Source of the DNA: an uncultured Thermococci archaeon
GTDB taxonomy: Archaea > Methanobacteriota_B > Thermococci > Methanofastidiosales > B48-G16
Length of the DNA: 64,000 nucleotides
Reading direction: 5' to 3'
Assembly (NCBI GenBank): GCA_964595645.1
Contig: CAZQQT010000005.1
Span: 104,999-168,998, forward strand
Made by a program: the position numbers and the translations under genes. A model generated the notes under the pieces. It was not told the origin of the DNA and did no database searches. It saw nothing but the letters and a program-made list of their open reading frames with translations. Within the stretch, counting starts at the first letter, position 1. Each line of letters opens with the position of its first letter. This document shows positions 23,931 to 42,292 of this stretch, piece after piece.

Positions 23931-25716
23931 ATGTACGGATACGGCGGTAAGGTGCTGTGGGTTGATCTCACCGATAGGGAGGTTCGCATCGAAACGGTGG
24001 CAGAGTCGTGGATAAAACCTGTTATCGGCGGCCGTGCTGCCAATACAAAGCGACTTATAGAAAAAATCGATCCCTCATGCGATCCACTAGGGCCTGAGAA
24101 TGTACTCATCTTCGGAGTTGGTCCGCTTACCGGCTCGCTCCTTCCGGCCTCTGTCTACCATACCATTACTGCAAAATCACCGCTCACCGGAATACTTGGC
24201 GATTCTGCGGCTGGCGGTCAGTTCGGTGCGGCAATGAAGCGCACGGGGTTTGACCAGATTGTTATCAGCGGGAAAGCAGAGTCTCTTAGCTATCTTCTGA
24301 TCACTGATGACGGCGTAGAGTTCATTGCGTGTCCTGAGTATGAAGGAACGTCGATTTTGGAAACCACACATCGTATTCGAAAGGATCAGCGCGATCATTC
24401 CATCGAAGTGGCAGCCATTGGGCCTGCAGGAGAGAACGAAGTCCTCTTTGCTTCGGTTGTTTCCAGCGGAAACAGAGTGAATGGTCGTACCGGTATGGGT
24501 GCTGTGATGGGATCAAAAAATCTCAAGGCGGTGGCTGTTACAGGATCCCGTTCGGTGGAACTGGCAGATCCATTGCAGTTTTTCTCACTTGTCAGGGAGC
24601 TTGAGAAGAAAATCCGGAATCATCCCGAGTATGAGAAGCGGTACCATCTTGGGACTACGATGCTTATGAAAGATCTTAACAGCATCGGTATTCTTCCTAC
24701 CAATCATTTTCAAAAAGGGATCTGTTCCTATGTTGACAAAATTTCAGGAGAGACGCTCGCAAAGAAATTTAAAATGAAAAATAAATCTTGTTTTAACTGC
24801 AACGTCCACTGTTCCCGTTACTATCGGTGCAACGGTCTGGAAGCAGAGGGACCGGAGTTCGAAACGCTCTGCAGCTTTACCTCACGTATAGGAAACGATA
24901 ATCTTGCCTTCGCCTTGGAGATGAACAGGTACCTCAACCAGATGGGTCTCGATTCTATCTCCACTGGTGAGATCATTGGGTGGATAATGGAGTGTCAAGA
25001 AAGGGGACTGATCGCACCGAAAGAGCTCGATGGGGTTAGTATTTCATGGGGAGAGAGAAAAGATCCGCGAGATCGTGAGGAAGATAGTACATCGGGAAGG
25101 TATAGGCGATGAGTTAGCCGCCGGTGCAAGAAATTTTTCGAAATCATTCAGTAAAGAAGCACAGGAATTAGTAATGCATGTGAAGGGACTGGACGTGATC
25201 TGCGGCGATCCTCGAGGAATAAAAGCATATGGTCTTACCTACGCAATTGCTTCTCGTGGAGCAGATCACCTCCGAGCAGAACCGTATTTTGAGCTCACCA
25301 ACAGAAAAAAAGAGGCAAAAAGACGATTTGGTACAGAAAAAGCTGCCGATAGATTATCAGAAGAGGGAAAAGCTGCACTGGTAACGTATTCCGAGAAAAT
25401 TTCGCTTCTCTGCGATTCATTAACGATGTGTAAGAATATTGGACTTTGTATGGACATCTTAGATTTTGAGAATGCTGCTTCCCTCTTAAAGGCGGGTACC
25501 GGGATTCACTACACACTAGAATATCTAAAAAAGACACTGGAAGAAGCTATCACGCGGGACCGAGAGCTCAATGGTAGGTTCGGGCTTATTGAAGAAGAGG
25601 ATACCCTCCCAGATCGGTTTGTCCATGAGCCACTGGGAGAGGGAGCAACACAAGGCTCCGTAGTGGATATCGATAGGATGGTGGAGGAGTATTATAAACT
25701 CCATGGATGGAAGTAA
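23931..25716 (+). pseudogene. aor: Tungsten aldehyde:ferredoxin oxidoreductase, split by one frameshift at about 25051-25060
   Basis: MYGYGGKVLWVDL, KSPLTG, IGPAGEN, GRTGMGAVMGSKNLKAV, CFNCNVHC, EGPEFE, GLDSIS; second half REGIGDELA, HVKGL, RGADHL, DSLTMC, YYKLHGW. Confidence 0.85.
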
Positions 25717-25728
25717 TTCTCGGTCTTT

Positions 25729-26536
25729 TTATTCCTTCGGTTTCCTTCTCAATGAAAATCCTGTCTTTTTCTTTACAAATTTGTATGCACTGTACAGAAT
25801 TGCGGCCATGGCAGCAACAGGTACTGTAATGAAGAATCCGATGATTATTACTCTAATCGTTGCCATAAAAGCCTGTATTCCTGTTTCAAGAGCTCCCTTT
25901 AGTCCCCACTCATACGATATCGGTTTCGGCTCCGAGATGCGAATGGTGATTGTCGAGTACTCGACTCTGTTTTTCAGGTAGTTCATCTCTCCCTGAAGTC
26001 TTTCAATCGCTTCTCTTGTATCTGAGAGTCTTGATTCTATTTTGAGGATTTCTTCTACCGTGTCCGCCTTTTCAAGTATCTCGAGATACCGTTGTTCTTC
26101 AGCTTTCCTATTTTTCAACCGTGATTCAAGATCGATATATTGTTTTGTGACATCTTCTCTCCGTACATCAGTACTTTGTACCGTTCCCAGCAATTTTATT
26201 TCTTTCTACCACCTGCGAAAAGTGTTTTTCAGGTATTCGTAGGGTAACGTACCCTTCTCTATAGTTTTCCTCAGTTTCAGAGGATGATTGCGCGATGTAT
26301 CCTTCGTATTTTTCTGTGATTTTTTCTATCTTCTTCAATGTTATCTCAAAATTTCCTGTCTCTATCTCTATCTGAGAGGCGGTAATCACTTTTCTCTCAG
26401 AGATTGACTCTTCGGAAGTTGAGGTACTTGGCTCTTTCTCTCCTCCTGTTCCTTTTTGGAGGTCCAAAGCCTCCTCTCCACCGATGCATCCCACAAAAAG
26501 TACAACAACCACTACTGCAAGTAAAATTTTTCTCAT
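25729..26536 (-). pseudogene. DUF4349-domain lipoprotein, split by a one-base frameshift at about 26200
   Basis: Lipobox LFVGC; YEGYIAQS..VTLRIP; then LGTV..EDVTKQYIDLESRLKN..IERLQGEMNYLKNRVEYSTITIRISE and a C-terminal TM; removing one A gives VEEIKLLGTV. Confidence 0.78.
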
Positions 26537-27030: not shown

Positions 27031-27909
27031 ATGACTATGCATGAGATCCTTCATAAAGAAGAATTAAGTGATACCATTAAGCTTTTAGATGTGGAAGCGC
27101 CTTTAATTGCAAAGAAATTTGAGCCCGGACAGTTTTTAACAATTCGTATCGATGAAAAAGGAGAAAGAGTGCCGTTGACTATTGTAGATACCGACGAATA
27201 CAAGGGGAGCGTCCGAATAATATTTCAAGAGGTAGGAAAAACAACTAAACAGCTGGGACTGCTCGATGAGGAAGATTTCATCGAGGACATCGTCGGCCCC
27301 TTAGGAACTGCTTCTGAGATAGAGAACTTTGGAAAGGTCGTGTGCGTTGGAGGGGGTGTCGGCGCTGCACCACTCTACCCTCAAGCTCGTGCCCTCCATG
27401 AAGCGGGAAATGAGGTTATTACTATTATAGGTGCACGAACAAAGGATTTACTAATATTGGAGGACGAGATGAAAGAGGTTTCTGATAGGTTCTATATCAC
27501 TACAGATGACGGTTCCTATGGGAGGAAGGGATTCGTATCCGATGTGTTACAGGAAATACTTGAGGAAGAGGAGATTAACAGAGTGATCACTATTGGTCCT
27601 GCGATAATGATGATGGTCACGGCAAGGGTAACCAAACCCCATGGCGTGAAAACAATAGCGTCCTTGAACTCCATTATGGTTGATGGAACAGGGATGTGCG
27701 GAGCATGTAGGGTGAAAGTAGGTGGGGAAACAAAGTTCGCCTGCGTTGATGGCCCCGATTTCGATGCCCATAAAGTTGACTTTGAGTTGCTCATGGAAAG
27801 ACAAAAAATGTATCTCGAGGAGGAAATTCGGGCGATAGAATCGTATGAAGATGAGCTATTCGAAAAACTAAGTGCTGTCCGTTCCCTCGTTAAAGAAAAA
27901 AGGAGATAA
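27031..27909 (+). CDS. nfnA: NfnA/SudB: small FAD/[2Fe-2S] subunit of bifurcating transhydrogenase, copy 1
   Basis: PGQF, GERVPLTI, GPLG, VGGGVGAAPLYP, TDDGSYG, IGPAIMM, MVDGTGMCGACR..FACVDGPDF. Confidence 0.92.
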   Translation: MTMHEILHKEELSDTIKLLDVEAPLIAKKFEPGQFLTIRIDEKGERVPLTIVDTDEYKGSVRIIFQEVGKTTKQLGLLDEEDFIEDIVGPLGTASEIENFGKVVCVGGGVGAAPLYPQARALHEAGNEVITIIGARTKDLLILEDEMKEVSDRFYITTDDGSYGRKGFVSDVLQEILEEEEINRVITIGPAIMMMVTARVTKPHGVKTIASLNSIMVDGTGMCGACRVKVGGETKFACVDGPDFDAHKVDFELLMERQKMYLEEEIRAIESYEDELFEKLSAVRSLVKEKRR

Positions 27910-27923
27910 AGGAGGGATCATGA

Positions 27924-29306
27924 ATGGTTGTCAAAGAAAAAACAAAAATAAAGGAACAGGATCCAGAAGAGAGAATCAATAATTTTTACGAGGTTGTACA
28001 GGGTTACAGCATTGAAGAGGCAATGAAAGAGGCTGAGAGATGTTTACAATGTAAAAATTCGCCGTGTGTAAATGGTTGTCCAGTAGAAATAGATATCCCT
28101 GCATTTGTACAACTTATAAAAGAAGGAAACTTTGATGAAGCAATAGCAAAAATAAAAGAGAAGAATAACCTTCCTGGAATTACTGGTCGTGTTTGCCCCC
28201 AGGAGGAGCAGTGTGAGAAAAAATGTACCCTAGGAAAAAAATTTGAGCCTGTGGCAATTGGCAAATTGGAACGATTTGCAACAGACTGGGAAATGAAGAA
28301 GGGAGTAGCGCCACCAGAAGTACCGGAGTCTACGGGAAAAAAAGTTGCTATTGTGGGTTCAGGACCAGCTGGGCTTACCTGTGCAGGAGATCTCGCACGG
28401 AAGGGTCACGAAGTTACACTGTACGAATCACTCCATAAACCGGGTGGGGTGCTGGTCTATGGTATCCCAGAGTTCCGACTGCCGAATAAAACAGTTGAGG
28501 ACGAGATCGAATACATAGAGAAGCTTGGTGCCAAGATAAAGGTAAATCATGTGATAGGGAAAATACTCACCATGGAAGAGTTGCTGGAAGAGTACAACGC
28601 TGTGTTTGTTGGCACTGGTGCAGGCCTTCCCAGATTTTTGGGAGTTCCTGGTGAGAACCTTAATGGAGTATACTCCGCAAACGAATTTTTAACGAGAGTA
28701 AATCTTATGAAAGCATATAAGTTTCCCGAATATGACACTCCGGTGAAGATAGGAAAGCGAGTTGCAGTGGTTGGTGCAGGCAATGTGGCCATGGACTCAG
28801 CGAGAACGGCGTTGCGACTTGGTGCTGATAAATCGTATATAGTTTACAGGCGGTCTGAGAATGAAATGCCTGCCAGAGATGAGGAGATCGAACATGCCCG
28901 GGAAGAGGGCGTTGAGTTTCTTCTCCTGACAAATCCAACAAAGTTTGTAGATGATGGTAGTGGATGGGTAAATAAAATGGAGTGTATCAAGATGAAGCTC
29001 GGTGAGCCCGATAAATCAGGGAGACCGAGACCGATACCCATTGATGGAAGCGAGTTCCCTATCGACGTTGATCTTGTGGTGATCGCTTGCGGTCAGAGAC
29101 CTAATCCACTTCTTCCTGATGCAACGGAGGGTCTTGAGACTACAGAATGGGGAACGGTTAAAGCCGATGAGAATGGAAGAACTACACTCGATCGTGTGTG
29201 GGCTGGTGGGGATATTACCTCTGGAGCGGCAACAGTGATTGCAGCGATGGGTGCAGGAAAAAAGGCAGCAGCGGATATGCACGCATTCCTTACAGAGGAT
29301 ACATAA
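27924..29306 (+). CDS. nfnB: NfnB/SudA (GltD-like, often annotated gltA), copy 1
   Basis: RCLQC..PCVNGCP, GRVCPQEEQCE, VGSGPAG, YGIPEFRLP, GAGNVAMD, YRRS NADP motif, AGGD. Confidence 0.92.
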   Translation: MVVKEKTKIKEQDPEERINNFYEVVQGYSIEEAMKEAERCLQCKNSPCVNGCPVEIDIPAFVQLIKEGNFDEAIAKIKEKNNLPGITGRVCPQEEQCEKKCTLGKKFEPVAIGKLERFATDWEMKKGVAPPEVPESTGKKVAIVGSGPAGLTCAGDLARKGHEVTLYESLHKPGGVLVYGIPEFRLPNKTVEDEIEYIEKLGAKIKVNHVIGKILTMEELLEEYNAVFVGTGAGLPRFLGVPGENLNGVYSANEFLTRVNLMKAYKFPEYDTPVKIGKRVAVVGAGNVAMDSARTALRLGADKSYIVYRRSENEMPARDEEIEHAREEGVEFLLLTNPTKFVDDGSGWVNKMECIKMKLGEPDKSGRPRPIPIDGSEFPIDVDLVVIACGQRPNPLLPDATEGLETTEWGTVKADENGRTTLDRVWAGGDITSGAATVIAAMGAGKKAAADMHAFLTEDT

Positions 29307-29405
29307 GAGTATTTTTCTCTTCTTTAATTTTAAATATCTTTTTTTATACCTTTTTTATTAGGGGGTATTTTTTGTTCCTATATATCCAAATTTTTCCTTT
29401 TTTAT
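29307..29405 (+). terminator. Long T-rich tract after nfnB copy 1, probable archaeal terminator region
   Basis: Several T5-T7 runs; followed by a TATA-like tttttaaa about 30 nt before ATG 29454. Confidence 0.5.
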
Positions 29406-29453
29406 CACACAGTAAGATTTTTAAACCTCGATGTGGAATACAAAGCGATATAC

Positions 29454-29933
29454 ATGGGTAATCCTCCGGTGGAAGATGAGATAAGAAAGATTGTTCATGA
29501 ACACGGTCCGCAACCTGAAAATCTGATCGCGATTCTGCAGGCATTGCAGGAAAACTACGGCTTTCTCCCTGAGAAAGCATTTCCACTTCTTGCAAGTGAA
29601 ATGGAAATTTCAGAGTCGAGAATATATGGGGTAGCTACCTTTTATGCGCAGTTTAAATTTATAAAGCCAGGGAAGCACGAGATAAAAGTCTGCATGGGAA
29701 CAGCATGTCATGTGAAGGGATCAGAAACACTTCTTAATGCCATGAAATCAGAACTCGAAATAGAGCCAGGAGAGACGACTGAAGACGAGTTTTTCAGTCT
29801 GGAACGGGTAGCATGTCTGGGGTGTTGTGCGCTTTCCCCAGTAGCCATGATCGACGGCAAAGTTCACGCACGGATGACCCGACCAAAACTCATCTCATTA
29901 CTCGATAGGTTCAACGAGGAAAGAGAGGGATAA
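29454..29933 (+). CDS. NuoE/HydC-like [2Fe-2S] subunit
   Basis: LIAILQALQENYGFL, GVATFYAQF, CMGTACHVKG, ACLGCCALSP. Confidence 0.92.
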   Translation: MGNPPVEDEIRKIVHEHGPQPENLIAILQALQENYGFLPEKAFPLLASEMEISESRIYGVATFYAQFKFIKPGKHEIKVCMGTACHVKGSETLLNAMKSELEIEPGETTEDEFFSLERVACLGCCALSPVAMIDGKVHARMTRPKLISLLDRFNEEREG

Positions 29934-29934
29934 T

Positions 29935-31803
29935 ATGAACGAAAAATCTACTATTCTAGTGTGTAGGGGTACAGGGTGTACCTCATCGGATTCACCAAAG
30001 ATATATGATGCGTTAAGGGAGAAGGTCTCCGAGGAGAATCTGGACAATGTTGAAGTGAAACAGACAGGTTGCCATGGATTTTGTCAGCGGGGTCCCATCG
30101 TTGTTATCGAACCTGAAGGCACATTTTACTGTGAGGTAACACTGGATGATGTTTCCGAGATTATAGAGTCTCATATCAAAAATGATACACCCGTGGAACG
30201 CCTGTTCTACCGAGAATCAGAACATAAGGAACCAGTACGCTTTTATGAAGACATCTCCTTTTATAAAAATCAACACAGGATCATTCTGCGAAATTGTGGG
30301 AAGATCGATCCTGAAAATATTGACGACTACATTAATGCAGGGGGATATGACGGACTCAATCAAGTGCTTTCCTCTATGGCACCTGAGAATGTGGTAAGTG
30401 AAATAAAACGATCGGGTCTTCGTGGGAGAGGAGGCGCAGGTTTTTCCACTGGATTAAAATGGATGTTTTGTCGCGGCGAAGAGAGCGATGAGAAATACAT
30501 TATATGCAACGCAGATGAGGGCGATCCCGGAGCGTTCATGGACCGCAGTATTCTAGAGGCAGATCCACACAGTGTGCTCGAGGGGCTGACAATTGGTGGA
30601 TACGCAATTGGTGCGACACAGGGATATATCTACATACGTGAAGAGTATCCCCTTGCCATTCATCGAATAAAAATTGCCATCGAACAGTCGAGAGATCGCG
30701 GTTTTTTGGGTAAAAATATCCTTGATTCTGGAGTTAACTTTGATATTAAAATAAGCAAGGGAGCAGGTGCATTTGTATGCGGCGAAGAAACAGCACTTAT
30801 TGCATCTGTAGAAGGAAAACGAGGGATGCCTCGTCCTCGTCCTCCTTATCCCACTCAAAAAGGATTATGGGGAAAACCAACAGTGATAAACAATGTGAAA
30901 ACGCTGGCAAATATTCCTATAATCATCACGAAAGGAGCGGACTGGTTCTCATCCATCGGTTCGGAAAGATCCGCAGGTACTGCTGTCTTTGCTCTCACAG
31001 GAAAGGCTACAAACAGTGGACTTGTAGAAGTCCCCATGGGAACGAGGCTTCAAGACATCATCTACAATATAGGTGGCGGGATTCCTGGCGACAAAATGGT
31101 GAAAGCTGTGCAGACAGGGGGGCCCTCAGGTGGCTGTATCCCAGCACACATGGTGGGTCTTACCTTCGATTATGAATCGCTCATACAAGAAACGTACATT
31201 CCAGCCAACTATGTGGATCTTCCCATTGACTATGAAACCCTCGCTAGAGTTGGTTCTATTATGGGTTCTGGTGGAATGGTGATAATGGATGAGGATACCT
31301 GTATGGTTGATGTTGCTCATTTTTTTCTGAGTTTTACTCAGTACGAGTCCTGCGGAAAATGTCCTCCTTGTCGTGAAGGAACGAAGAAAATGAAGGATAT
31401 CTTGGAGAGAATCATTGAAGGAAGAGGAAAGATGGGAGATATAAACCTCTTAGAAGAGCTTGCTATTACTGTGAAGAGAGGTTCACTTTGCGGGTTGGGT
31501 CAAACAGCGCCAAACCCCGTATTAACAACATTGCGATATTTCAGGCACGAGTATGAGGCCCATATAAAGGATAAACGGTGTCCGGCGAAGGCCTGCAAAG
31601 CGTTGATATGGTTTGAGATCGATCCAGACACGTGCATCGGCTGCACAAAGTGCGCACGGAACTGTCCGGTGGATGCTATTACAGGTGAGGCAAAGGAACC
31701 GCATGAAATCGATCAGGATCCGTGCATAAAATGTGGAACATGTCTGGAGGTATGTCCTGTGAATGCTGTGGAGAAGAAGACTAACAAGCCCGGAGGTGTG
31801 TAA
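29935..31803 (+). CDS. NuoF/HydB-like FMN/NAD-binding subunit with N-terminal [2Fe-2S] and C-terminal 2x[4Fe-4S]
   Basis: CRGTGC..GCHGFC, GRGGAGF, CNADEGDPGAFMDR, GAFVCGEE, GGPSG, ESCGKCPPCREG, CGLG, CIGCTKCARNCP, CIKCGTCLEVCP. Confidence 0.93.
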   Translation: MNEKSTILVCRGTGCTSSDSPKIYDALREKVSEENLDNVEVKQTGCHGFCQRGPIVVIEPEGTFYCEVTLDDVSEIIESHIKNDTPVERLFYRESEHKEPVRFYEDISFYKNQHRIILRNCGKIDPENIDDYINAGGYDGLNQVLSSMAPENVVSEIKRSGLRGRGGAGFSTGLKWMFCRGEESDEKYIICNADEGDPGAFMDRSILEADPHSVLEGLTIGGYAIGATQGYIYIREEYPLAIHRIKIAIEQSRDRGFLGKNILDSGVNFDIKISKGAGAFVCGEETALIASVEGKRGMPRPRPPYPTQKGLWGKPTVINNVKTLANIPIIITKGADWFSSIGSERSAGTAVFALTGKATNSGLVEVPMGTRLQDIIYNIGGGIPGDKMVKAVQTGGPSGGCIPAHMVGLTFDYESLIQETYIPANYVDLPIDYETLARVGSIMGSGGMVIMDEDTCMVDVAHFFLSFTQYESCGKCPPCREGTKKMKDILERIIEGRGKMGDINLLEELAITVKRGSLCGLGQTAPNPVLTTLRYFRHEYEAHIKDKRCPAKACKALIWFEIDPDTCIGCTKCARNCPVDAITGEAKEPHEIDQDPCIKCGTCLEVCPVNAVEKKTNKPGGV

Positions 31804-31804
31804 C

Positions 31805-34003
31805 ATGGTCATGCTCACAATAAATAATAAAGAAGTGGAGGGCAACGAAGGAGATACAATTCTCGAAGTGGCAGAAGCAGCAGATATTTATATCCCCACA
31901 CTCTGTAACCATCCACAGTTACCACCCTTCGGTAGCTGTAGAATGTGTCTTGTTAAGGTTCAAGATATGCAGAACTACGTCCCTGCATGCACCACCCCTA
32001 TTGATGAGGGGATGGTAGTGTATACAGATATAGAGGAATTGAAAAGGCTCAAACGCAACATACTTGAGCTCATACTCTGTGATCATCCAAGTGCTTGCAT
32101 CGTTTGTGATGATCGAGAACTATGTTTCAAGTATCACAAAGACCCTGAGAAAGCAGGTACAACGACCGGCTGTCGTTTCTGCCCGAACAAGGATGATTGT
32201 GAACTTTACGAAATAGCGGATCATCTTGATATAAAGGATCTGCGTTTGGAGGTAAGGTACAAAGAGTTACCAATACATCGAGATGATTTCTTTATTGAGC
32301 GAAATTATAATCTCTGTATATTATGCGGAAGATGTGTGAGAGAATGTCGTGAGATCAGAGGTGTTTCTGCCGTAGCGTTTACGGAGAGAAGCCATAAAGC
32401 TACGGTAGGAACGGCCTTCGATAAACCATTAATAGAGAGTGAGTGTATCTTCTGTGGGGCATGCATTGATGTGTGCCCCACGGGCGCACTGTCAGAGAAG
32501 GCGTTAAAGTGGGGAGGAAAAGCTGAAAAGATAACTTCTACTACCTGCATGCTCTGTCCCTTCGGTTGCAATATCAATGTGGAGTCGAGAAGAGAAAGGG
32601 TCATGAATGTCTGGTCACCGAGAGAGAATATAAATGAGGGGCAGTTGTGCATGAAAGGCCGCTTCATTATACCACCCCTCATGAATTCTCCGAATAGAGC
32701 CCGGCATCCAATGATACGAAAAAATGGTACATTACAACCTGTGTCGTGGGAAAAAGCCATTGCTTACGCAGCAGAACATCTAATGAAATACAATGGAGGG
32801 GAAGTGGGTATTGGTGTTTCTTCGTGGCTCACAAACGAGGATGCATATCTCCTTCAGAAGTTTGCACGAGGTGTAATGGGTACCGACAACTTACTTCCGA
32901 TATCGTCCATGATACAGGGTGTTGCCCGCCCACTTGCCGAAAATTTTGGATTCTGCGGCCCTACAGGAACGATAGAGAAGCTCGATACCGCAGATACGAT
33001 TCTTATCATCGGTACAGATCTCAATCTCTCGGCACCTGTGCTCCTCGTTCCTACATATAGGGCGAAAACAAGAGGTGCTACAGTCATCATGATCGGTACC
33101 AATACAACGAAAGTCCCAAAGTATGTGGACACATACGTTTCTCCCAAAAAGTATAGATCATTTTTCACTGAAGTAATGAAAAAAATGGAGAAAGAAAAAG
33201 AAAATCCTGAAGGAGATAGTGGGAAGGTAGCCGAGGCGTTAAAGCATGGAAACACTGTGATTATCTTTGGTCCGGGTCTTACCGGTGAAGATGGTGCCGA
33301 AACTGTAAAAATTCTTAGTGATACTCTCTCCCAGAAACATATCACTGTGCTACCGGCATGGGATGGCGGTAACCTGCAGGGAATACTGGATATGGGCGCC
33401 GTATCGGGAATACTACCAGGACAGCACTCTCTTTCCTCTGAGGATGCAAAAACACGTATAGAACATTTATGGAATCTCCCGATAGCTGAAAGTACCGGAA
33501 AACAGGAAAACATGAAGGTTCTCTATCTCACAGAACCTGTGTCGTCTGTTCCCGAGAATGTGGAGTTCCTCGTGCTTCATACTATCTTCGATACGGATCT
33601 CGCTGAAAGGGCCGATGTTGTCTTTCCCACTACTGCGTTCACAGAAATGGAGGGCACAGTAACGAATCTTGAAGGGAGGGTACAACGTGTTACTCAATGC
33701 ACCAACCCTCCTGCCATGGCGATGAGCCCCTGGAGGGCAATTACTAACCTCGCAGAAGCGATGGACGCTTCAGGATTTGAATATGAGGCTGTGAGTGAGG
33801 TGACAGATGAGATATTCCAATGTATACCAGAAATGGATATAGGAATTTATTCCAGACAGAAGAAGAAATCGGAACAACTGAGTATCGGTGAAGATGAAAT
33901 CCCTCCCCCCCATGGAGAGCTTGGATACGGAGGTACATATCTCGGCGATCTCGTAAAGGATTTTGATGCTATCGTTTCATACTGGAGGTCTAACAATGAA
34001 TAA
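31805..34003 (+). CDS. NuoG/FdhA-like Fe-S subunit with non-catalytic molybdopterin-oxidoreductase domain
   Basis: IPTLC..GSCRMC..PAC, HPSACIVC, CILCGRCVREC, CIFCGACIDVCP, CMLCPFGC..LCMKGRF; no Cys/Sec-His Mo ligand; no C-terminal molydop-binding domain. Confidence 0.85.
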   Translation: MVMLTINNKEVEGNEGDTILEVAEAADIYIPTLCNHPQLPPFGSCRMCLVKVQDMQNYVPACTTPIDEGMVVYTDIEELKRLKRNILELILCDHPSACIVCDDRELCFKYHKDPEKAGTTTGCRFCPNKDDCELYEIADHLDIKDLRLEVRYKELPIHRDDFFIERNYNLCILCGRCVRECREIRGVSAVAFTERSHKATVGTAFDKPLIESECIFCGACIDVCPTGALSEKALKWGGKAEKITSTTCMLCPFGCNINVESRRERVMNVWSPRENINEGQLCMKGRFIIPPLMNSPNRARHPMIRKNGTLQPVSWEKAIAYAAEHLMKYNGGEVGIGVSSWLTNEDAYLLQKFARGVMGTDNLLPISSMIQGVARPLAENFGFCGPTGTIEKLDTADTILIIGTDLNLSAPVLLVPTYRAKTRGATVIMIGTNTTKVPKYVDTYVSPKKYRSFFTEVMKKMEKEKENPEGDSGKVAEALKHGNTVIIFGPGLTGEDGAETVKILSDTLSQKHITVLPAWDGGNLQGILDMGAVSGILPGQHSLSSEDAKTRIEHLWNLPIAESTGKQENMKVLYLTEPVSSVPENVEFLVLHTIFDTDLAERADVVFPTTAFTEMEGTVTNLEGRVQRVTQCTNPPAMAMSPWRAITNLAEAMDASGFEYEAVSEVTDEIFQCIPEMDIGIYSRQKKKSEQLSIGEDEIPPPHGELGYGGTYLGDLVKDFDAIVSYWRSNNE

Positions 34004-34829
34004 AATAATCACTATAAAGGAAATTGTACCCAATGTTCATGAAATCACAGTAAAAGCTCCAGAAGTGGCAGTAAAGGCAAAACCCGGTCAGTTTGCAGTG
34101 ATCATCCCTGATAAAGTAGGAGAGCGGATTCCATTGAGCCTTGCGAATTGGGATACATCTGAGGGGACTGTTACTATGGATTTTTTAGAGGTGGGCGTGT
34201 CAACAATGAAGCTCGCTAGGAAAAAGGCAGGCGACATGATAGATTTTATGGCACCATTAGGCGAACCTGCAACAATAAAGGAGTATGGTACAGTGTTTAT
34301 TGGAGGAGGATGTTATGGGATCGGTGCAATATATCCTATTTTAAAAGCGATGAAAGAGGCAGGTAACCGTACGATTACAGCTATTGAGGCAAGGAGTGAG
34401 TATTTACTCTACAATGAAGAACTGTTGAAGAATTATTCAGATAGATTTATCATTACAACGTCGGATGGAAGTAGAGGAGAGAAAGGAAAGGTAAAATCAA
34501 TGTTCAACGCATTGATAGAAAGTGGTGAAAAAATAGACATGGCGTACTTCATGGGATGTACCTTTATGATGATGATATCCGCCGAGAGGGCAAAAGAGCA
34601 CGATATAAAAAATTTTGTGTATCTCAATCCACTAATGGTGGATGCCACAGGTATGTGCGGCGTATGCAGAGTGAATGTGGGAGGAAAGACGAAATTCGCC
34701 TGTGTTGATGGTCCAGAGTTCCCAGGGAACGAGGTAGATTGGGAAGAGCTGTTCACACGAAAGGATCAGTATGCAGTACATGAGAGAGAGGCGTATCAGC
34801 ACAAATGTAGGTTAGAGGGAGGTGAGTAA
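33996..34829 (+). CDS. NfnA/SudB-like subunit, copy 2 (divergent)
   Basis: PGQF, GERIPLS, GGGCYGIG, TSDGSRG, MGCTFMMM, MVDATGMCGVCR..FACVDGPEF; overlaps the NuoG-like stop. Confidence 0.88.
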   Translation: MNKIITIKEIVPNVHEITVKAPEVAVKAKPGQFAVIIPDKVGERIPLSLANWDTSEGTVTMDFLEVGVSTMKLARKKAGDMIDFMAPLGEPATIKEYGTVFIGGGCYGIGAIYPILKAMKEAGNRTITAIEARSEYLLYNEELLKNYSDRFIITTSDGSRGEKGKVKSMFNALIESGEKIDMAYFMGCTFMMMISAERAKEHDIKNFVYLNPLMVDATGMCGVCRVNVGGKTKFACVDGPEFPGNEVDWEELFTRKDQYAVHEREAYQHKCRLEGGE

Positions 34830-34831
34830 CA

Positions 34832-36310
34832 ATGCCGTACAAATACGAGGGAAAACAGCTTTCTCCTGAAGAAAGAAAAGAAAGAATGAAAAAATCCAGA
34901 AAAAAAATGCCCGAGCAAGATCCAAAAGTACGAATTACAAATTTCAACGAGGTAAACTTAGGTTACAATGCCGAAACAGCTATTAAGGAGGCGAAAAGAT
35001 GCCTTCTCTGTGCGAACTCACCATGTGTGAGGGGATGCCCAGTCAGCATTAAGATCCCTGAGTTCCTTGATAAAGTAACGGAGGGTAAGTTCGTTGAGGC
35101 ACTTGAGATAGTAAAGGAGGACAATGTACTCCCCGCAGTTACTGGGAGAGTATGCCCACAAGAAATCCAATGTGAAGGAGAGTGTACCCAGGGAAAGGTC
35201 AACGATCATCCTCTTGGGATTGGTTATCTCGAACGGTTTGTGGCGGATTACGAGCGTACTTCCTCCGAGTCGTGTTGCGTAGAGGTAAAGCCCTCTTCCG
35301 GGAAAAAGGTGGCTGTAGTAGGATCTGGTCCTGGAGGTCTCACTGTGGCAGCAGATGCAGCGAGAGAGGGGCATGAGGTGCATGTCTTCGAAGCGCTCCA
35401 CAAACCAGGAGGTGTGCTCATCTACGGTATTCCAGAATTCCGGCTACCAAAGGATATTGTCGCGTATGAGATTGAAGGACTCCGTGAGATGGGAGTCACA
35501 TTTCATACGAGCCATGTCATCGGGAGAATCTATACCATCGATGATCTTCTGGATAAGAAAGGATTCGATGCAGTCTATCTCGGCATTGGCGCAGGACTCC
35601 CTCGATTCATGAGGATCAGTGGCGAGAACCTCAATGGGATCTACAGTGCCAACGAGTACCTCACCAGATCGAACCTGATGAAAGCGTACGATTTTCCCGC
35701 TTACGACACTCCAATTTTACGAGGAAGAAATGTAGCAGTAATCGGAGGAGGAAATGTTGCCATGGACTCGGTACGGACTGCCCTGCGGCTCGGAGCAGAG
35801 AATGCGTATCTCGTCTACCGACGTGCCAGAAAACAAATGCCCGCGAGAGATGAAGAAATAAAACATGCAGAGGAAGAAGGGGTCGATTTTAGACTGTTAA
35901 GAAATCCTGTGAAGTATATTGGTAATGAAAACGGATGGGTGGAGCAGATGGAATGCATCAAGATGGAGCTCGGCGAGCCCGATGAGTCAGGGAGAAAGCG
36001 TCCTGTTCCTATCGAAGGAAGTGAGTTTACTCTCGATGTAGATCTCGTTGTCGTTGCCATTGGTACCGGTGCCAACCCACTATTGACTCATGCAACTCCA
36101 GGACTTGAGACGGATGACTGGGGATATATAAAGGTCAACGAACAGTTCCAGACGGCAAAAGAGGGCGTGTTTGCAGGAGGAGATATTGTAAGGGGTGGAG
36201 CAACGGTAATTCTTGCCATGGGTGATGGCCGCAGCGCGGCGAAATCCATAAATGCGTATCTTGAAACAGAAGGGTGGCCCGAAGAGATAACACCACAGGA
36301 CTTCTGGTAG
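34832..36310 (+). CDS. nfnB: NfnB/SudA (GltD-like), copy 2
   Basis: RCLLC..PCVRGCP, GRVCPQEIQCE, YGIPEFRLP, GGGNVAMD, YRRAR, AGGDIVRG; SD ggaggtga. Confidence 0.9.
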   Translation: MPYKYEGKQLSPEERKERMKKSRKKMPEQDPKVRITNFNEVNLGYNAETAIKEAKRCLLCANSPCVRGCPVSIKIPEFLDKVTEGKFVEALEIVKEDNVLPAVTGRVCPQEIQCEGECTQGKVNDHPLGIGYLERFVADYERTSSESCCVEVKPSSGKKVAVVGSGPGGLTVAADAAREGHEVHVFEALHKPGGVLIYGIPEFRLPKDIVAYEIEGLREMGVTFHTSHVIGRIYTIDDLLDKKGFDAVYLGIGAGLPRFMRISGENLNGIYSANEYLTRSNLMKAYDFPAYDTPILRGRNVAVIGGGNVAMDSVRTALRLGAENAYLVYRRARKQMPARDEEIKHAEEEGVDFRLLRNPVKYIGNENGWVEQMECIKMELGEPDESGRKRPVPIEGSEFTLDVDLVVVAIGTGANPLLTHATPGLETDDWGYIKVNEQFQTAKEGVFAGGDIVRGGATVILAMGDGRSAAKSINAYLETEGWPEEITPQDFW

Positions 36311-36396
36311 TAGAGCGAATAATATTCACCACAAAATTTTTAAAGATTTTTAGGTTTTTTTGTGTAGATACAAGAGGACAGTAGAGGCGATTGAAT

Positions 36397-37783: not shown

Positions 37784-39703
37784 ATGAAAGCTATACCAAA
37801 AAAAGAACTTTTTGCATTTGTTGATGCATTAATAGAAACTGAGTCAATGAACGTTGAGGGTCCAAAGGCGAAAGGCGAAAAATTTGTCTTCGGACCGCTC
37901 GAATCAAGCAACGAACTTCGACTTGATTATGATGTGACTATTCTGCCGCCCAAAAAGTATTTTTTACCACAATATGAAGATATACTGAGCTACGATCTCT
38001 CGCAGCCATTTTCTGTTGAAAAAAAAGAAAAACGCACACCCACAGTAATTGTGGGGATGCATCCCTACGATATCGTGGCAATACAGCAGATGGATACGTA
38101 CTATTTCGATACCTTTGTGGACGATGCGTATCTTCAAAAGCGGAAAAATGCAATAATTATAGGATTAAACGTGACGAATGTTGCAGAAAAAGCATTTTTT
38201 GGAGATATGGGTACAGGGTCTGTCGATTCTGGATACGATCTGATGCTTACAGATTTAGGAGATACAATAGCTATTGAAGTAGGTACAGAGGAGGGAGAAA
38301 GCCTTTTGGACGAGTACGCATCTTCTGTACGTGAGGCAACACCTGAAGAAGTTCAGAAGGTGAAAAAACTCATAGAAAAAGCAAACAAAGAAGCAACGCG
38401 CGATCTTGCCGTGGAACCATCAGGGTGGCACGATCTCTTAGAAAAAAATTATGATAGTGAGGTATGGAAGGAACAATCAGAGAAATGTCTCAGCTGTGGA
38501 ACGTGCACGCTCGTATGCCCCACCTGTTTCTGTTACGATGTGAATGATGAAGTGAACCTCGATCTTACCACAGGGAAAAGGATACGAACATGGGATGGAT
38601 GTCTACTCAGAAACTTCACCAAAGTAGGCTCCGGTGAGGTCTTCCGAGAGGATGTGGAAGACAGATACAGGCACCGATACTACAGGAAGGGGAAATACCT
38701 TCCAGAGATGCTAGAGTTCGTTGCATGTGTTGGGTGTGGCCGTTGTTCCACACAGTGTATCCCTGATATCGCCGATCCCGTGGATGTAATAAATAAGATA
38801 GTTGAAGGATCCTCTCGTCTTGTTGAAGAGTCTGAAATCACCCCTCACACAACGATGAAGGCTCCGGGTACCGTTACAGCAGAAGAGCCCCTTTACAAAC
38901 CCCAACCTGCCACTGTTACACGAGTTGAAGAACTCACAGAGCTTGAAACACTGTTTGAGATCGAACTTGACAGCGGCGATCCATTGGGGCACGAACCAGG
39001 CCAGTTTGTCGAAGTTTCAGTAATGGGCTACGGAGAGGCGCCTATCTCTGTGTCCTCTGCACCTGACGGCAACAGCTTTGAACTTGTGGTAAGGAGGGTG
39101 GGAGATGTCACTACAAAACTCCACACCATGAAATCCGGTGATAAAATTGGGATTCGAGGTCCCTTCGGAAATGGATTCGATGTGAATGCCTTGGAAGGTG
39201 AAAATATTCTCTTCATCGGAGGAGGTATTGGTATCGTCCCCATGCGGTCACTCATTAACTACGTACTGGACAATCGGGAAGATTTTAAAGATGTTACCAT
39301 TCTCTACGGCTGTAAAAAACCGTGCGAACTTCTCTTTGAAGATGAAGTATCTACGTGGGGAGCTCGTGAGGATGTACAGTTCCTCAAATCTGTGGACAGA
39401 TGTCCAGAAGGAGAGGAATGGGACGGTGAGATCGGTGTGATCACATGCCTTATCCCCAAAGCAAAGTTCGATCCGGAGAATACCGTTGCCATCGTAGTAG
39501 GACCACCAATCATGTATAAGTTCGTTATCGGTGACCTGCTCGATCTGGGCATGCCCGAGGAAAACATCGTTGTGTCCCTGGAGCGGAGAATGAAATGCGG
39601 TGTAGGGAAATGTGGACACTGTCAGATCAATGGACTGTATGTCTGCAAAGATGGACCGGTATTCAATTATAAAGATATAAAGGATCTTCCGGAGGCGATC
39701 TAA
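37784..39703 (+). CDS. Fused sulfhydrogenase beta (AsrA-like) and gamma (AsrB-like FAD/NAD(P)) subunits
   Basis: Beta part: LPPKKYF, CLSCGTCTLVCPTCFC, WDGC, CVGCGRCSTQC. Gamma part: PGQF, GEAPIS, RGPFGNGF, GGIGIVP, LERRMKCGVGKCGHC..VCKDGPVF. One open frame. Confidence 0.9.
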   Translation: MKAIPKKELFAFVDALIETESMNVEGPKAKGEKFVFGPLESSNELRLDYDVTILPPKKYFLPQYEDILSYDLSQPFSVEKKEKRTPTVIVGMHPYDIVAIQQMDTYYFDTFVDDAYLQKRKNAIIIGLNVTNVAEKAFFGDMGTGSVDSGYDLMLTDLGDTIAIEVGTEEGESLLDEYASSVREATPEEVQKVKKLIEKANKEATRDLAVEPSGWHDLLEKNYDSEVWKEQSEKCLSCGTCTLVCPTCFCYDVNDEVNLDLTTGKRIRTWDGCLLRNFTKVGSGEVFREDVEDRYRHRYYRKGKYLPEMLEFVACVGCGRCSTQCIPDIADPVDVINKIVEGSSRLVEESEITPHTTMKAPGTVTAEEPLYKPQPATVTRVEELTELETLFEIELDSGDPLGHEPGQFVEVSVMGYGEAPISVSSAPDGNSFELVVRRVGDVTTKLHTMKSGDKIGIRGPFGNGFDVNALEGENILFIGGGIGIVPMRSLINYVLDNREDFKDVTILYGCKKPCELLFEDEVSTWGAREDVQFLKSVDRCPEGEEWDGEIGVITCLIPKAKFDPENTVAIVVGPPIMYKFVIGDLLDLGMPEENIVVSLERRMKCGVGKCGHCQINGLYVCKDGPVFNYKDIKDLPEAI

Positions 39704-40479
39704 TGAAACCAAGAGTAGCATTCTTTGATTTCGCCAGCTGTGAGGGATGTCAGCTGCAGATAGCGAACCTCGAAGAAGCAGTGATTGATGTGACGAAGAT
39801 AGTGGATATTGTCTCCTTCCGTGAGGTAATGAAGGAGCACAGCGACGATTACGATATCGCCGTAGTGGAAGGATCGGTAATGAGGCCTATGGACGAGGAA
39901 CGGTTGAAAAACATCAGAGAAAATGCAGATATTCTCGTAGCGCTCGGGGCGTGTGCGTGCATAGGATGTGTACAGCGTATGCTCAATCAGTGGCCAATGA
40001 AGGAGAATAAGGAGGTTGTGTACGGTGAGGCTGATCCTTCTGACATTGAAGATAATCCCTACTTCGAAAATTTCCCCACAAAGGCACTGGATGAGATAGT
40101 GGAGGTGGATGCGTATATTCCCGGATGCCCCATCGATAGAGATGAATTCGCAAAAACACTCGTGGCCTTGGTTCAGGGTAAAAAACCACCCATCCCCGAC
40201 TATCCACTCTGTGTCGAGTGTAAGAAAAAAGAAAATGTGTGCGTATTTGAGCTAGGAATGGTATGTTTAGGACCTATCACACGGGCAGGATGCGGTGCTA
40301 TCTGTCCTTCCTATGGGAACGAATGCGAGGCGTGCAGGGGGCTAATAAGTCACCCCGAGGAACGGGCGCATAAAGAGGTGCTGGAGAAATACGACCTTAC
40401 AGTAGAAGAAATCTTGCAGAGAAAATCAATGTTTACCTACCGGCATGTAGAAGAAAAGGAGGCTGAAGACGATGAGTGA
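39703..40479 (+). CDS. hydD: Group 3b [NiFe]-hydrogenase small (delta) subunit
   Basis: ASCEGCQ, VEGS, LGACA, IPGCP, CVECK..C..CLGPITRAGCGAICP..CEACRG. Confidence 0.92.
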   Translation: MKPRVAFFDFASCEGCQLQIANLEEAVIDVTKIVDIVSFREVMKEHSDDYDIAVVEGSVMRPMDEERLKNIRENADILVALGACACIGCVQRMLNQWPMKENKEVVYGEADPSDIEDNPYFENFPTKALDEIVEVDAYIPGCPIDRDEFAKTLVALVQGKKPPIPDYPLCVECKKKENVCVFELGMVCLGPITRAGCGAICPSYGNECEACRGLISHPEERAHKEVLEKYDLTVEEILQRKSMFTYRHVEEKEAEDDE

Positions 40480-41770
40480 GATCAACATCGATGTGGAACA
40501 TTTAACGCGAGTAGAAGGCCATGGTAATGTAGTATTCAACGCAAAAAATGGCGAGATAGAGAAGGTGCAGTGGCAGGTGTCCGAGGCGCCGAGAATGTTT
40601 GAATCTTTTGTTCGGGGGAGACCATACCATCAGATGTCACATGTGACCTCCCGAATCTGTGGTATCTGTTCTATTGGACATGCGCTCTGCTCACTAAAAG
40701 CTACGGAGAACGCAATGGACATCGATGTCACGGAACAAACCGTGAAGCTGAGGAAGATCGCGCTTCATGCAGAGAACATGCAGAGCCATATCCTCCATGT
40801 AGGGTATCTTGTGGCACCGGATCTCTTTGGTGCAGGGAGCGTCTTCCCTATGATCGAGACACACAAAGATGCAGTGCTCAAGATTATTAAAATGCACAGA
40901 CTCGCCAACGAGATGTCGGCGCTGATGTGTGGACGAACGACACACCCCATTACATTAATACCGGGAGGATTCACCCAGATCCCGTCCGAACGACAGCTCA
41001 AAAATCTCAGAAAGCGGTTGGAGGATATTATTCCTGTATGCGACGATGTTGCGCAGATAGTACTCGACAACGCTGATGCACTCCCCGCTTTCAGTAGAGA
41101 AACGGAGTATGTCGGGCTCACGACAGCGGAGGAGTACGCACTGTACGATGGAGATATCGGGTCGACAGATACGGGGATACATCCTGTTGAGGAGTACAAA
41201 TCTGTGACGAACGAGTTTGTGGTGCCCTACTCTACCGCCAAGTTCACGAAGCATGCACGAGATTCGTATATGGTTGGTGCGCTGGCACGATTCAACCTGA
41301 ACTCGGATCAACTGCGTCCATTAGCAAAGGAATGCGCTGAGAAGTTTGGATTAAAGGCAATAAACTACAACCCCTTCATGAACAACATTGCACAGCTGGT
41401 GGAGTACTACCATTCCGTAGAGGATTCAATCGCATTTATCGATGAGGTCCTCGAGAAGGGCCTGAAGAAAAACGACAATACCGAGTACGATGTGAAGGCA
41501 GGGCGAGGCATTGGTGCTGTAGAGGTTCCACGAGGAATTCTCTTTCACGACTACACGTACAATAGTAATGGTATTTGTACAGAGGCAAATCTCGTGATAC
41601 CCACGAACCAAAACCACAATAACATCAACAAAGACATGGAAGCATTCGCACCGACGCTTCTGAACAAACCGGAGAAAGAGATCGAACTGAACCTCGAGAT
41701 GCTCGTGCGTGCGTACGATCCTTGTATCTCATGTTCGACACACTATCTGAATGTCGAGTTCAAAAAATAA
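40472..41770 (+). CDS. hydA: Group 3b [NiFe]-hydrogenase large (alpha) subunit
   Basis: LTRVEGHG, L1 SRICGICS, EVPRGILFH, L2 RAYDPCISCSTH plus a cleavable tail. Confidence 0.94.
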   Translation: MSEINIDVEHLTRVEGHGNVVFNAKNGEIEKVQWQVSEAPRMFESFVRGRPYHQMSHVTSRICGICSIGHALCSLKATENAMDIDVTEQTVKLRKIALHAENMQSHILHVGYLVAPDLFGAGSVFPMIETHKDAVLKIIKMHRLANEMSALMCGRTTHPITLIPGGFTQIPSERQLKNLRKRLEDIIPVCDDVAQIVLDNADALPAFSRETEYVGLTTAEEYALYDGDIGSTDTGIHPVEEYKSVTNEFVVPYSTAKFTKHARDSYMVGALARFNLNSDQLRPLAKECAEKFGLKAINYNPFMNNIAQLVEYYHSVEDSIAFIDEVLEKGLKKNDNTEYDVKAGRGIGAVEVPRGILFHDYTYNSNGICTEANLVIPTNQNHNNINKDMEAFAPTLLNKPEKEIELNLEMLVRAYDPCISCSTHYLNVEFKK

Positions 41771-41800: not shown

Positions 41801-42292
41801 ATGAGCGAATCCCAATCTGGTCAGCGAAAGAGAAAAGATATCGGGGTAATTGCTGTGGGCAATGAGCTGATGGGGGACGATGGTATTGGTCCGGCGGTGT
41901 TAGACGCTCTCAAAAGGGAACAGCTACCGCGCAGCGTTGACTTGGTTCACGGTGGAACGGGTGGTGTTTCACTACTCCACACTATAAAGGATTACTCCAC
42001 AGTAATTTTCATCGATTCCGCTGATTTTGGTGGTGATCCTGGAGAAATAAAAGTTTTTACTCCTTCAGATGTTGCATCGACGAAGGAGGTAACAGGGCTC
42101 TCACTGCACGAAACAGACCTTATAAAGGTTATTCGCCTCTCACAGGAACTCGGAGAAGCCCCCGAAACTATCGTGATCGTAGCAGTCCAGCCTAAACAGA
42201 TAACAATGAAGGATTCACTTTCACCGGAAGTCGCTAGTGCAGTGCCTCACGCGGTAAAAAAAGTACTGTCACAAATAGAGCAAGTGGGATAA
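41801..42292 (+). CDS. Hydrogenase maturation endopeptidase (HycI/HybD family)
   Basis: VGNELMGDDGIG, VIFIDSA, PGEI, SLHE, LSPEV. Confidence 0.9.
   Translation: MSESQSGQRKRKDIGVIAVGNELMGDDGIGPAVLDALKREQLPRSVDLVHGGTGGVSLLHTIKDYSTVIFIDSADFGGDPGEIKVFTPSDVASTKEVTGLSLHETDLIKVIRLSQELGEAPETIVIVAVQPKQITMKDSLSPEVASAVPHAVKKVLSQIEQVG

Follow-up and report, generated by a model that had tools for sequence, protein, structure and literature searches.

A five-gene locus of an uncultured Thermococci archaeon encoding a probable Bfu-family flavoprotein with a dedicated NfnSL pair

Introduction

NfnSL and the Bfu-type enzyme NfnABC have been presented as unrelated alternatives for balancing reduced nicotinamide adenine dinucleotide phosphate (NADPH), reduced nicotinamide adenine dinucleotide (NADH) and ferredoxin (Fd) (Schut et al. 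2022). Here we describe a locus that carries genes of both kinds in one unit, in a 64,000-nucleotide (nt) stretch of an uncultured Thermococci archaeon (contig CAZQQT010000005.1 of assembly GCA_964595645.1, positions 104,999 to 168,998; hereafter the window). The unit encodes BfuC, BfuB, BfuA and an NfnSL pair that we call NfnS2 and NfnL2. We consider it probable (about 0.65), on the basis of sequence comparison, that the five products form one soluble five-subunit iron-sulfur (Fe-S) flavoprotein of the Bfu (HydABC-type) family, in which the dedicated NfnSL pair would be the third-substrate module.

The closest described systems share parts of this arrangement. The Type 1 Bfu enzymes NfnABC and StnABC (Thermococcus sibiricus, 9N5U; Caldicellulosiruptor saccharolyticus, 9BOV; Sporomusa ovata, 8OH5) have the same BfuBC core and a NuoG/Fdh-like BfuA wire, and their NADP(H) site is likewise an NfnL-type module with flavin adenine dinucleotide (FAD) and two [4Fe-4S] clusters. 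In those enzymes, however, the NfnL-like domain is fused into BfuA (955-1178 amino acids (aa)) and there is no NfnS, whereas BfuA of the window has 732 aa and no flavin domain. NfnABC also has a Lys ligand on the flavin-proximal [4Fe-4S] cluster A7 (NfnA Lys-165) and an FAD that is a non-bifurcating entry point, whereas NfnL2 has a Glu ligand (CPQE) and an Arg at the flavin N5. The two hallmarks of Type 1 Nfn-Bfu enzymes, the fused NfnL-like domain without NfnS and the Lys ligand, are therefore both lacking from the unit. NfnSL, also called NfnAB (Thermotoga maritima, 4YLF; Pyrococcus furiosus NfnI, 5JCA), is the same pair as that found here, with all cofactor ligands and both FAD sites, but in its canonical form it is a free heterodimer. 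The closest solved BfuB belongs to the NiFe-HydABCSL of Acetomicrobium mobile (Type 3 Bfu, 7T2R), in which a non-catalytic NuoG-like BfuA is fed by two extra subunits; these are a NiFe hydrogenase, in contrast to the flavin-based bifurcating pair of the present locus.

Two further systems deserve comparison. For Bam-Bfu (BamBCDEFGHI) and for the HdrA-NfnB fusions of ANME-1 (PMC9012536), two bifurcating modules in one complex have been proposed in print, but the second module is HdrA-based, neither system combines BfuABC with NfnSL, and the proposals are undemonstrated. P. furiosus also has an NfnSL paralogue, Xfn or NfnII (5VJ7), whose S subunit differs in its nucleotide domain and which lacks NAD+-dependent activity; its pocket motif, GAYTG...VGP, differs from that of NfnS2, and no Bfu-type partner is mentioned for it in the literature examined. 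An enzyme made of BfuABC and NfnSL is found neither among the four Bfu types nor in Supplementary Table 1 of Schut et al. (2022), who report that Thermococcaceae have Nfn-Bfu or NfnAB, not both, and none of the fusion patterns A-D in a 2019 review of Nfn includes a NuoG-like partner (PMC6405883). Full-text literature searches found no description of such an enzyme either, in agreement with the first-pass annotation of the window, made from its letters alone, which had not recognised the arrangement among characterised enzymes. That annotation also used "Nso" as the name of a Thermococcus enzyme; the name was not found in the literature examined, where the characterised archaeal enzyme is NfnABC of T. 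sibiricus.

Results

A bifurcating-type core and an Fe-S wire

The unit comprises five co-directional open reading frames (ORFs) at 29454-36310 on the + strand, with junctions of +1, +1, -8 and +2 nt (Table 1), and the ORFs, the junctions and the T-rich spacers support the reading of the five genes as one unit. At its N-terminus BfuB has a thioredoxin-like 2Fe-2S part and, at its C-terminus, a 2x[4Fe-4S] part, and it carries the motifs DEGDPGAF(MDR) at residue 194, (GA)GAFVCGEE at 278 and GGPSG at 395. Since the NADH/FMN motifs DEGDPGAFMDR and GAGAFVCGEE distinguish the bifurcating versions of this subunit from non-bifurcating NuoF, FdsB and HoxF (Schut et al. 2022, Supplementary Figs 9-10), we compared BfuB with both groups, and its motifs agree with the bifurcating, not the non-bifurcating, block of Supplementary Fig. 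10. Its predicted ligands are C473, C476, C479 and C519 for B1, C456, H543, C549 and C554 (Cys/His/Cys/Cys) for B2, C567-577 and C597-607 for B3 and B4, and C10, C15, C46 and C50 for B5, so that, as judged from the alignment, all five ligand sets of the Bfu family are present (for cluster or Zn occupancy; Schut et al. 2022, Supplementary Fig. 9). This bears out the complete HydB Fe-S set and the bifurcation signatures that had been read in the NuoF-like subunit. The other two family members also accompany it, namely BfuC with ligands for its [2Fe-2S] cluster C1 (C80, C85, C121 and C125) and a BfuA homologue in the same operon.

The best solved relative of BfuB is the NiFe-HydB of A. mobile (7t2r_B, E 2.5e-252), followed by HydB of Acetobacterium woodii and the NfnB subunits of C. 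saccharolyticus (9bov_B) and T. sibiricus (9n5u_B); all of the top solved relatives are bifurcating BfuB subunits. No other gene of this genome (99.96% complete) encodes a PF01512 domain. At BfuB residues ~401-445 (31135-31265), the loop after GGPSG is lengthened by a short internal repeat (LTFDYESL ... LPIDYETL), where the match to HydB of the Thermoanaerobacter kivui type splits into two stretches.

BfuA carries ligands for a [2Fe-2S] cluster (C34, C45, C48 and C62), a His-ligated cluster (H94, C98, C101 and C107), two [4Fe-4S] clusters at 171-224 and a further [4Fe-4S] cluster (C248, C251, C255 and C282), followed by a degenerate pterin domain and a conserved C-terminal tail (677-732). In alignments to 6tg9_A, 9wxb_B and 9bov_A, Ile and Gln occupy the positions of the Mo-ligand Cys and the adjacent His of Rhodobacter capsulatus FdsA, and a Pfam scan found neither the PF01568 pterin cap domain nor a Fer4_20 or Pyr_redox_2 domain in BfuA. 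The features of a formate dehydrogenase, a Mo/W-ligand Cys or selenocysteine with the His, and the PF01568 cap, are hence missing. Because of the Ile/Gln at the Mo-ligand positions and the absent cap domain, BfuA is to be regarded, from its sequence, as an Fe-S wire without a catalytic site, as the description of the NuoG-like subunit as catalytically blind had held.

Beside the His-ligated cluster, BfuA has a second CxxCx5C motif (C123, C126 and C132, plus H111), which is invariant in its 24 closest homologues. We rejected this motif as a hallmark of NfnS-linked BfuA proteins, as among the 120 closest homologues it occurs also in FdhA-like relatives with the cap domain. The motif lies in the loop that receives the NfnL-like domain in C. 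saccharolyticus NfnA, where that domain (~101-567) is inserted between the equivalents of BfuA residues 98 and 126.

NfnS2 and NfnL2 retain their cofactor ligands, and the nucleotide pocket of NfnS2 is remodelled

NfnL2 is closest, among solved structures, to T. maritima NfnB (4ylf_B, E 1.9e-169), and P. furiosus NfnI-L (5jca_L) is also close. It keeps RCx2Cx4Cx3CPV and GRVCPQExQC, the latter for the Glu-ligated proximal cluster (cluster motifs as defined in PMC6405883), and YGIPEFRLPK, with the Arg at the flavin N5. NfnL2 thus has both [4Fe-4S] motifs of an NfnSL enzyme, the N5 Arg and the Rossmann folds for FAD and NADPH. Its own signature, an N-terminal arm (Y3, G7 and L10) together with K74, E77, D97, S144, C148, G168, H184, Y212 and W482, lies mostly in the Fe-S domain and at the termini.

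NfnS2 keeps the FAD motif E43-R44-x-P46 and the Asp/Cys3 ligands of the [2Fe-2S] cluster (D216, C221, C224 and C236), and these cofactor ligands are ~100% conserved across 121 sequences. The strict conservation of all cofactor ligands in both NfnS2 and NfnL2 argues that the NfnL2 FAD would still stand at a two-branch junction. In 75 of the 121 NfnS2 family members, position 223, between the ligand Cys residues, is an additional Cys, which makes the [2Fe-2S] sequence MCGCC; the window protein has Val there. The best solved match of NfnS2 is P. furiosus NfnI-S (5jca_S, E 1.6e-70); Xfn-S is a weaker one (5vj7_B, 2.5e-45), and with its different pocket motifs NfnS2 is not an S subunit of the Xfn type.

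Eleven positions set NfnS2 apart (N13, W52, G103, C106, Y107, G110, E131, Y139, F185, C188 and F190), being invariant among its relatives and different in canonical NfnS. They line the two FNR-type nucleotide motifs, and the pocket motif thereby reads GGCYG...GC, with nine further signature residues, in place of the canonical GGGVG...GP. The classical NAD(H) site of NfnS2 may accordingly be altered or replaced, but this need not entail a loss of NAD(H) binding, because G103-x-G105-x-x-G108 with E131, at the close of the following strand, makes up a classical dinucleotide fingerprint and R133 is retained. The "whole NfnAB" of the first-pass annotation therefore holds for the subunits and their cofactor ligands, but it has to be qualified, since both proteins are specialised paralogues and the NAD pocket of NfnS2 is remodelled. 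Phylogenetic analysis of 143 sequences placed the 27 that have C106, E131 and C188 in a single clade, with a Shimodaira-Hasegawa-like approximate likelihood ratio test (SH-aLRT) value of 91, which is distinct from the window's own NfnS1 and from the NfnS of Thermococcaceae.

The two Cys residues also allow an alternative end for the S-branch. C106 and C188, which stand for the Gly and the Pro of the two FNR-type motifs, are invariant in the 120 closest NfnS2 homologues (120/120) and in all 27 clade representatives, and they could form a redox dithiol/disulfide or a metal site by the S-FAD, in which case the branch would end on a thiol/disulfide, sulfur or some other acceptor. That acceptor would be the high-potential partner, and the complex its NADPH- and Bfu-coupled reductase; a CoA-disulfide-reductase-like gene does lie directly downstream in this window. 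We nevertheless think such an acceptor unlikely, as the same signature also yields the dinucleotide fingerprint, alongside the retained R133.

NfnS2 is linked and fused to BfuA-type proteins in many lineages

The BfuA/NfnS2 junction is an 8-nt overlap, ATGAATAA, with GGAGG 8 nt upstream, and NfnS2 is predicted to be translationally coupled to BfuA through this overlap and ribosome-binding site. Beyond the window, relatives of BfuA, NfnS2 and NfnL2 co-occur on contigs in more than 20 lineages. At least 21 pairs of BfuA and NfnS2 homologues (45-59% and 55-76% identity, respectively) have their source and longest contig in common, and several of these contigs are only 3.7-10 kb long. BfuA/NfnS/NfnL triples were found on contigs of 17709, 11027, 71203 and 10858 nt, and a further contig, of 117681 nt, yielded matches to BfuA and NfnL only. 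In two metagenome-assembled genomes of Deltaproteobacteria, the accession of the BfuA homologue is directly next to that of the NfnS homologue (MBW2569191/2 and MBW2661800/799).

A search with NfnS2 of 1.84 billion representatives at 50% identity gave 243 matches at E<=1e-30, and among the best of these were many long proteins whose C-terminal part is the NfnS. All ten long representatives that were scanned (10/10) are NuoG-like::NfnS fusions of 550-1080 aa, in which the N-terminal Fe-S domains are kept where that end is present and the pterin domain is variably reduced. The fusions fall into at least two subclades of the NfnS2 clade in the tree of 143 sequences, and the clade has only BfuA-type partners wherever the context is visible. 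Unlike the S subunit of the free two-gene heterodimer, NfnS2 is hence coupled to BfuA here and fused to it in relatives.

A metagenome scan, which used very generic Fe-S patterns, returned mostly FdhA/NuoG loci at 27-34% identity, and two loci were informative. In L026, the end of BfuB is directly followed by an 829-aa BfuA::NfnS fusion, and in L012, an NfnS that bears the C106/E131/C188 signature comes after a BfuA-like gene. A scan of genome contigs returned a single locus, from Balneolaceae, which is unrelated. The BfuA relative of L012 (78-3435) is an FdhA-like protein of 905 aa that retains the PF01568 cap domain, and some members of the system may, like it, keep a pterin site. Eight other loci (L016, L017, L022, L023, L025, L032, L054 and L062) have BfuC-BfuB followed by a lone GltD/NfnL-like gene beside a full FdhA-like gene, without NfnS.

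Because of the contig and accession linkage, the BfuA::NfnS fusions and the single signature clade, a physical association of BfuA and NfnS2 is very likely, and NfnS2L2 is, by the same comparisons, a dedicated lineage rather than a spare NfnSL. The recurrent fusions, the contigs shared in more than 20 lineages and the consecutive accessions thus uphold the tie between NfnAB and the NuoG-like subunit that had been proposed from the window. Schut et al. (2022) raised a caveat on Bfu gene clusters that applies here as well, namely that the genes may encode two separate co-transcribed enzymes, which would be a BfuABC-type module with its partner elsewhere and a second free NfnSL, and NfnS2L2 does hold every cofactor of a free-standing NfnSL. 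Such a division is very unlikely, however, given that the gene fusions recur and that the signature clade keeps to BfuA-type partners; a BfuABC module alone, with a BfuA that has no catalytic site, would be without a third substrate, and there is no other NuoF-type gene in the genome. That BfuA is instead a cryptic catalytic subunit (a formate or other pterin-dependent dehydrogenase), to which NfnSL merely supplies NADP(H), is highly improbable, for although its Molybdopterin domain is matched at E 5e-35 and the 905-aa relative in L012 keeps its cap and is followed by a signature NfnS, BfuA of the window has Ile/Gln for the Mo-ligand Cys/His and no cap, and the natural fusions drop most or all of the pterin domain but retain the Fe-S part.

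Proposed enzyme and possible electron wirings

In the five-subunit enzyme that we propose, the NfnSL pair would stand where other Bfu enzymes have a hydrogenase, a formate dehydrogenase or, as in NfnABC/StnABC, a fused NfnL-like domain. BfuB and BfuC would form the flavobicluster core that reacts with NAD(H), at a site in BfuB, and with Fd, at a site in BfuB/BfuC, BfuA would be a catalytically empty Fe-S wire and scaffold, and the NfnL2 FAD would be the NADP(H) binding site. NfnS2, tethered at the C-terminal side of BfuA, would provide a second electron branch, conserved and made up of [2Fe-2S] and FAD, with the remodelled pocket at its outer end. Gene anatomy, cofactor ligands, conserved linkage and fusions are observed, whereas assembly of the complex in this archaeon, its substrates and its electron path are inferred, and the net reaction is most likely that of an NADP(H)/NAD(H)/ferredoxin transhydrogenase.

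Three wirings can be considered, with physiological potentials of ~-380 mV for NADPH, ~-280 mV for NADH and ~-500 mV for Fd (PMC9304861); their stoichiometries, given as NADPH:NADH:Fd, are our own arithmetic. The one that we place first, though only tentatively, follows from the fusions and the remodelled NfnS2 pocket, which suggest that the S-branch enters BfuA; the NfnL2 clusters would then face ferredoxin, at 4 NADPH : 1 NADH : 6 Fd. In the NADPH-forming direction this reaction would be strongly exergonic; the NADPH pool could become over-reduced, and the adjacent NADPH-linked hydrogenase could make use of it. Energetic economy favours instead a Stn-like wiring with one effective bifurcation (2 NADPH : 1 NADH : 2 Fd), which would be near equilibrium but would leave one conserved branch idle and duplicate NfnS1L1, and we regard it as a doubtful second. 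The least probable of the three, in our view, is modelled by homology on the A7-A6-A3 path of solved NfnABC, so that the NfnL2 clusters would feed BfuA while NfnS2 would still reduce NAD+ (4:3:2); it would need an acceptor near -680 mV to reach balance. Depending on the wiring, both flavin junctions could be active, as the first-pass annotation had inferred, the crossed-potential FAD of NfnL2 and the flavin mononucleotide (FMN) flavobicluster of BfuBC being joined in series via BfuA; we do not claim such double bifurcation but take it seriously, with the odds somewhat against it.

Distribution and genomic context

Of the 133 genomes of the phylum that were searched, this one alone has the NfnS2 type, identity in the others being at most 47%, and no BfuA relative was found in a genome of the same genus (94% complete). 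Genomes of the same class encode NfnA-like proteins of 951-959 aa, and these genomes would be those of Thermococcaceae, because NfnA of T. sibiricus has 955 aa. Homologues bear names such as Thermoplasmatota, Thorarchaeota, Promethearchaeota and Desulfobacterales, and Thermodesulfobacteriota, Aminicenantota and Chloroflexota predominate in the Atlas clusters. Two accounts of the origin and setting of the unit were rejected. Vertical inheritance from Thermococcus NfnABC is opposed by BfuB, to which T. sibiricus NfnB is less close than the proteins of A. mobile and A. woodii are, and by the restriction of the NfnS2 type to this one genome of the phylum sample; a methanogen context is opposed by the absence of McrA from the 99.96% complete genome.

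The spacer upstream of the unit contains a T7 run (29339-29345), a T6 run (29351-29356), a TATA-like TATATAT (29379-29385) and a TTTTTAAA box at 29418-29425, ~30 nt 5' of the BfuC ATG, and these elements would be an archaeal terminator and promoter; the downstream spacer is likely the 3' end of the unit. A sigma-70 and hairpin scan gave results no different from those with shuffled sequences, these being bacterial-type models that are not applicable to an archaeal host.

Directly upstream and in the same orientation, behind T-runs, lies a canonical NfnS1L1 pair with the GGGVG...GP pocket (27031-29306), and the genome thus encodes two NfnSL pairs, one free and one Bfu-linked. Downstream, the CoA-disulfide-reductase-like gene is followed by a group 3b (sulfhydrogenase-type) [NiFe]-hydrogenase and its protease. 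The beta and gamma subunits of this hydrogenase are fused in one 639-aa ORF (37784-39703), after which come delta (39703-40479), alpha (40472-41770) and the HycI-type protease (41801-42292). Farther upstream, a gene of the aldehyde:ferredoxin oxidoreductase (AFOR) family (23931-25716), preceded by a polyferredoxin, is split into two overlapping ORFs of 393 aa (AFOR_N and AFOR_C positions 2-164) and 228 aa (AFOR_C positions 161-370), which may reflect a frameshift, a pseudogene or an assembly error. A DUF4349 gene (25729-26536, - strand), near the split AFOR gene, also consists of two overlapping ORFs (profile positions 1-71 and 70-210), an apparent second frameshift.

Table 1. Genes of the five-gene unit and its flanking spacers in the window (domains from Pfam and NCBIfam)
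Feature	Position	Strand	Basis of assignment
AT-rich spacer, 147 nt, between nfnS1L1 and the five-gene unit	29307..29453	+	Read from sequence
BfuC (NuoE/HydC-like, 159 aa)	29454..29933	+	PF01257 (2Fe-2S_thioredx), E 8.8e-47
BfuB (NuoF/HydB-like, 622 aa)	29935..31803	+	Pfam Complex1_51K, NADH_4Fe-4S
BfuA (NuoG/FdhA-like, 732 aa)	31805..34003	+	Pfam Fer2_4, Fer4_Nqo3, Molybdop_Fe4S4, Molybdopterin
NfnS2 (PyrK-like, 277 aa)	33996..34829	+	Pfam/NCBIfam; specialised NfnS
NfnL2 (GltD-like, 492 aa)	34832..36310	+	Pfam Fer4_20, Pyr_redox_2; specialised NfnL
AT-rich spacer with T-runs and TTTTTAAAG box, before the CoA-disulfide-reductase-like gene	36311..36396	+	Sequence

Discussion

The comparisons above suggest that the unit represents an additional subunit type of the Bfu family, one that would incorporate a specialised NfnSL. 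Several points weigh against this. The complex in the Thermococci archaeon is predicted from its genes, the shared-contig linkage is inferred indirectly from the match of source and contig, and the linkage of BfuC and BfuB outside the window rests on few loci, chiefly L026. A plain 2:1:2 transhydrogenase would be redundant with the canonical NfnS1L1 next door, and the 4:3:2 and 4:1:6 wirings are far from equilibrium, unlike known bifurcating enzymes. The unit is, moreover, accessory in this archaeon and was probably acquired by it, because it was not found in the same-genus genome or in the rest of the phylum sample; elsewhere it is widespread.

A conserved NfnSL-BfuBC complex would extend the Bfu classification by a new subunit type. 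It would also suggest an origin for the fused NfnA of NfnABC, because the domain insertion in NfnA falls at the same BfuA loop, and it would offer a natural test of the coupling between two different bifurcation mechanisms. The three wirings predict different, measurable stoichiometries (2:1:2, 4:3:2 and 4:1:6). If both junctions are active, this would be the first demonstrated enzyme in which two mechanistically different bifurcation sites are joined, and it would work as a non-canonical "gear", which at 4:3:2 could poise an acceptor near -680 mV and at 4:1:6 could over-reduce NADPH and, for example, push the neighbouring NADPH-linked group 3b hydrogenase. Models of redox balance would change for the many uncultured anaerobes whose genes of this kind currently carry the separate annotations "NuoEFG", "formate dehydrogenase" and "glutamate synthase/sulfide dehydrogenase".

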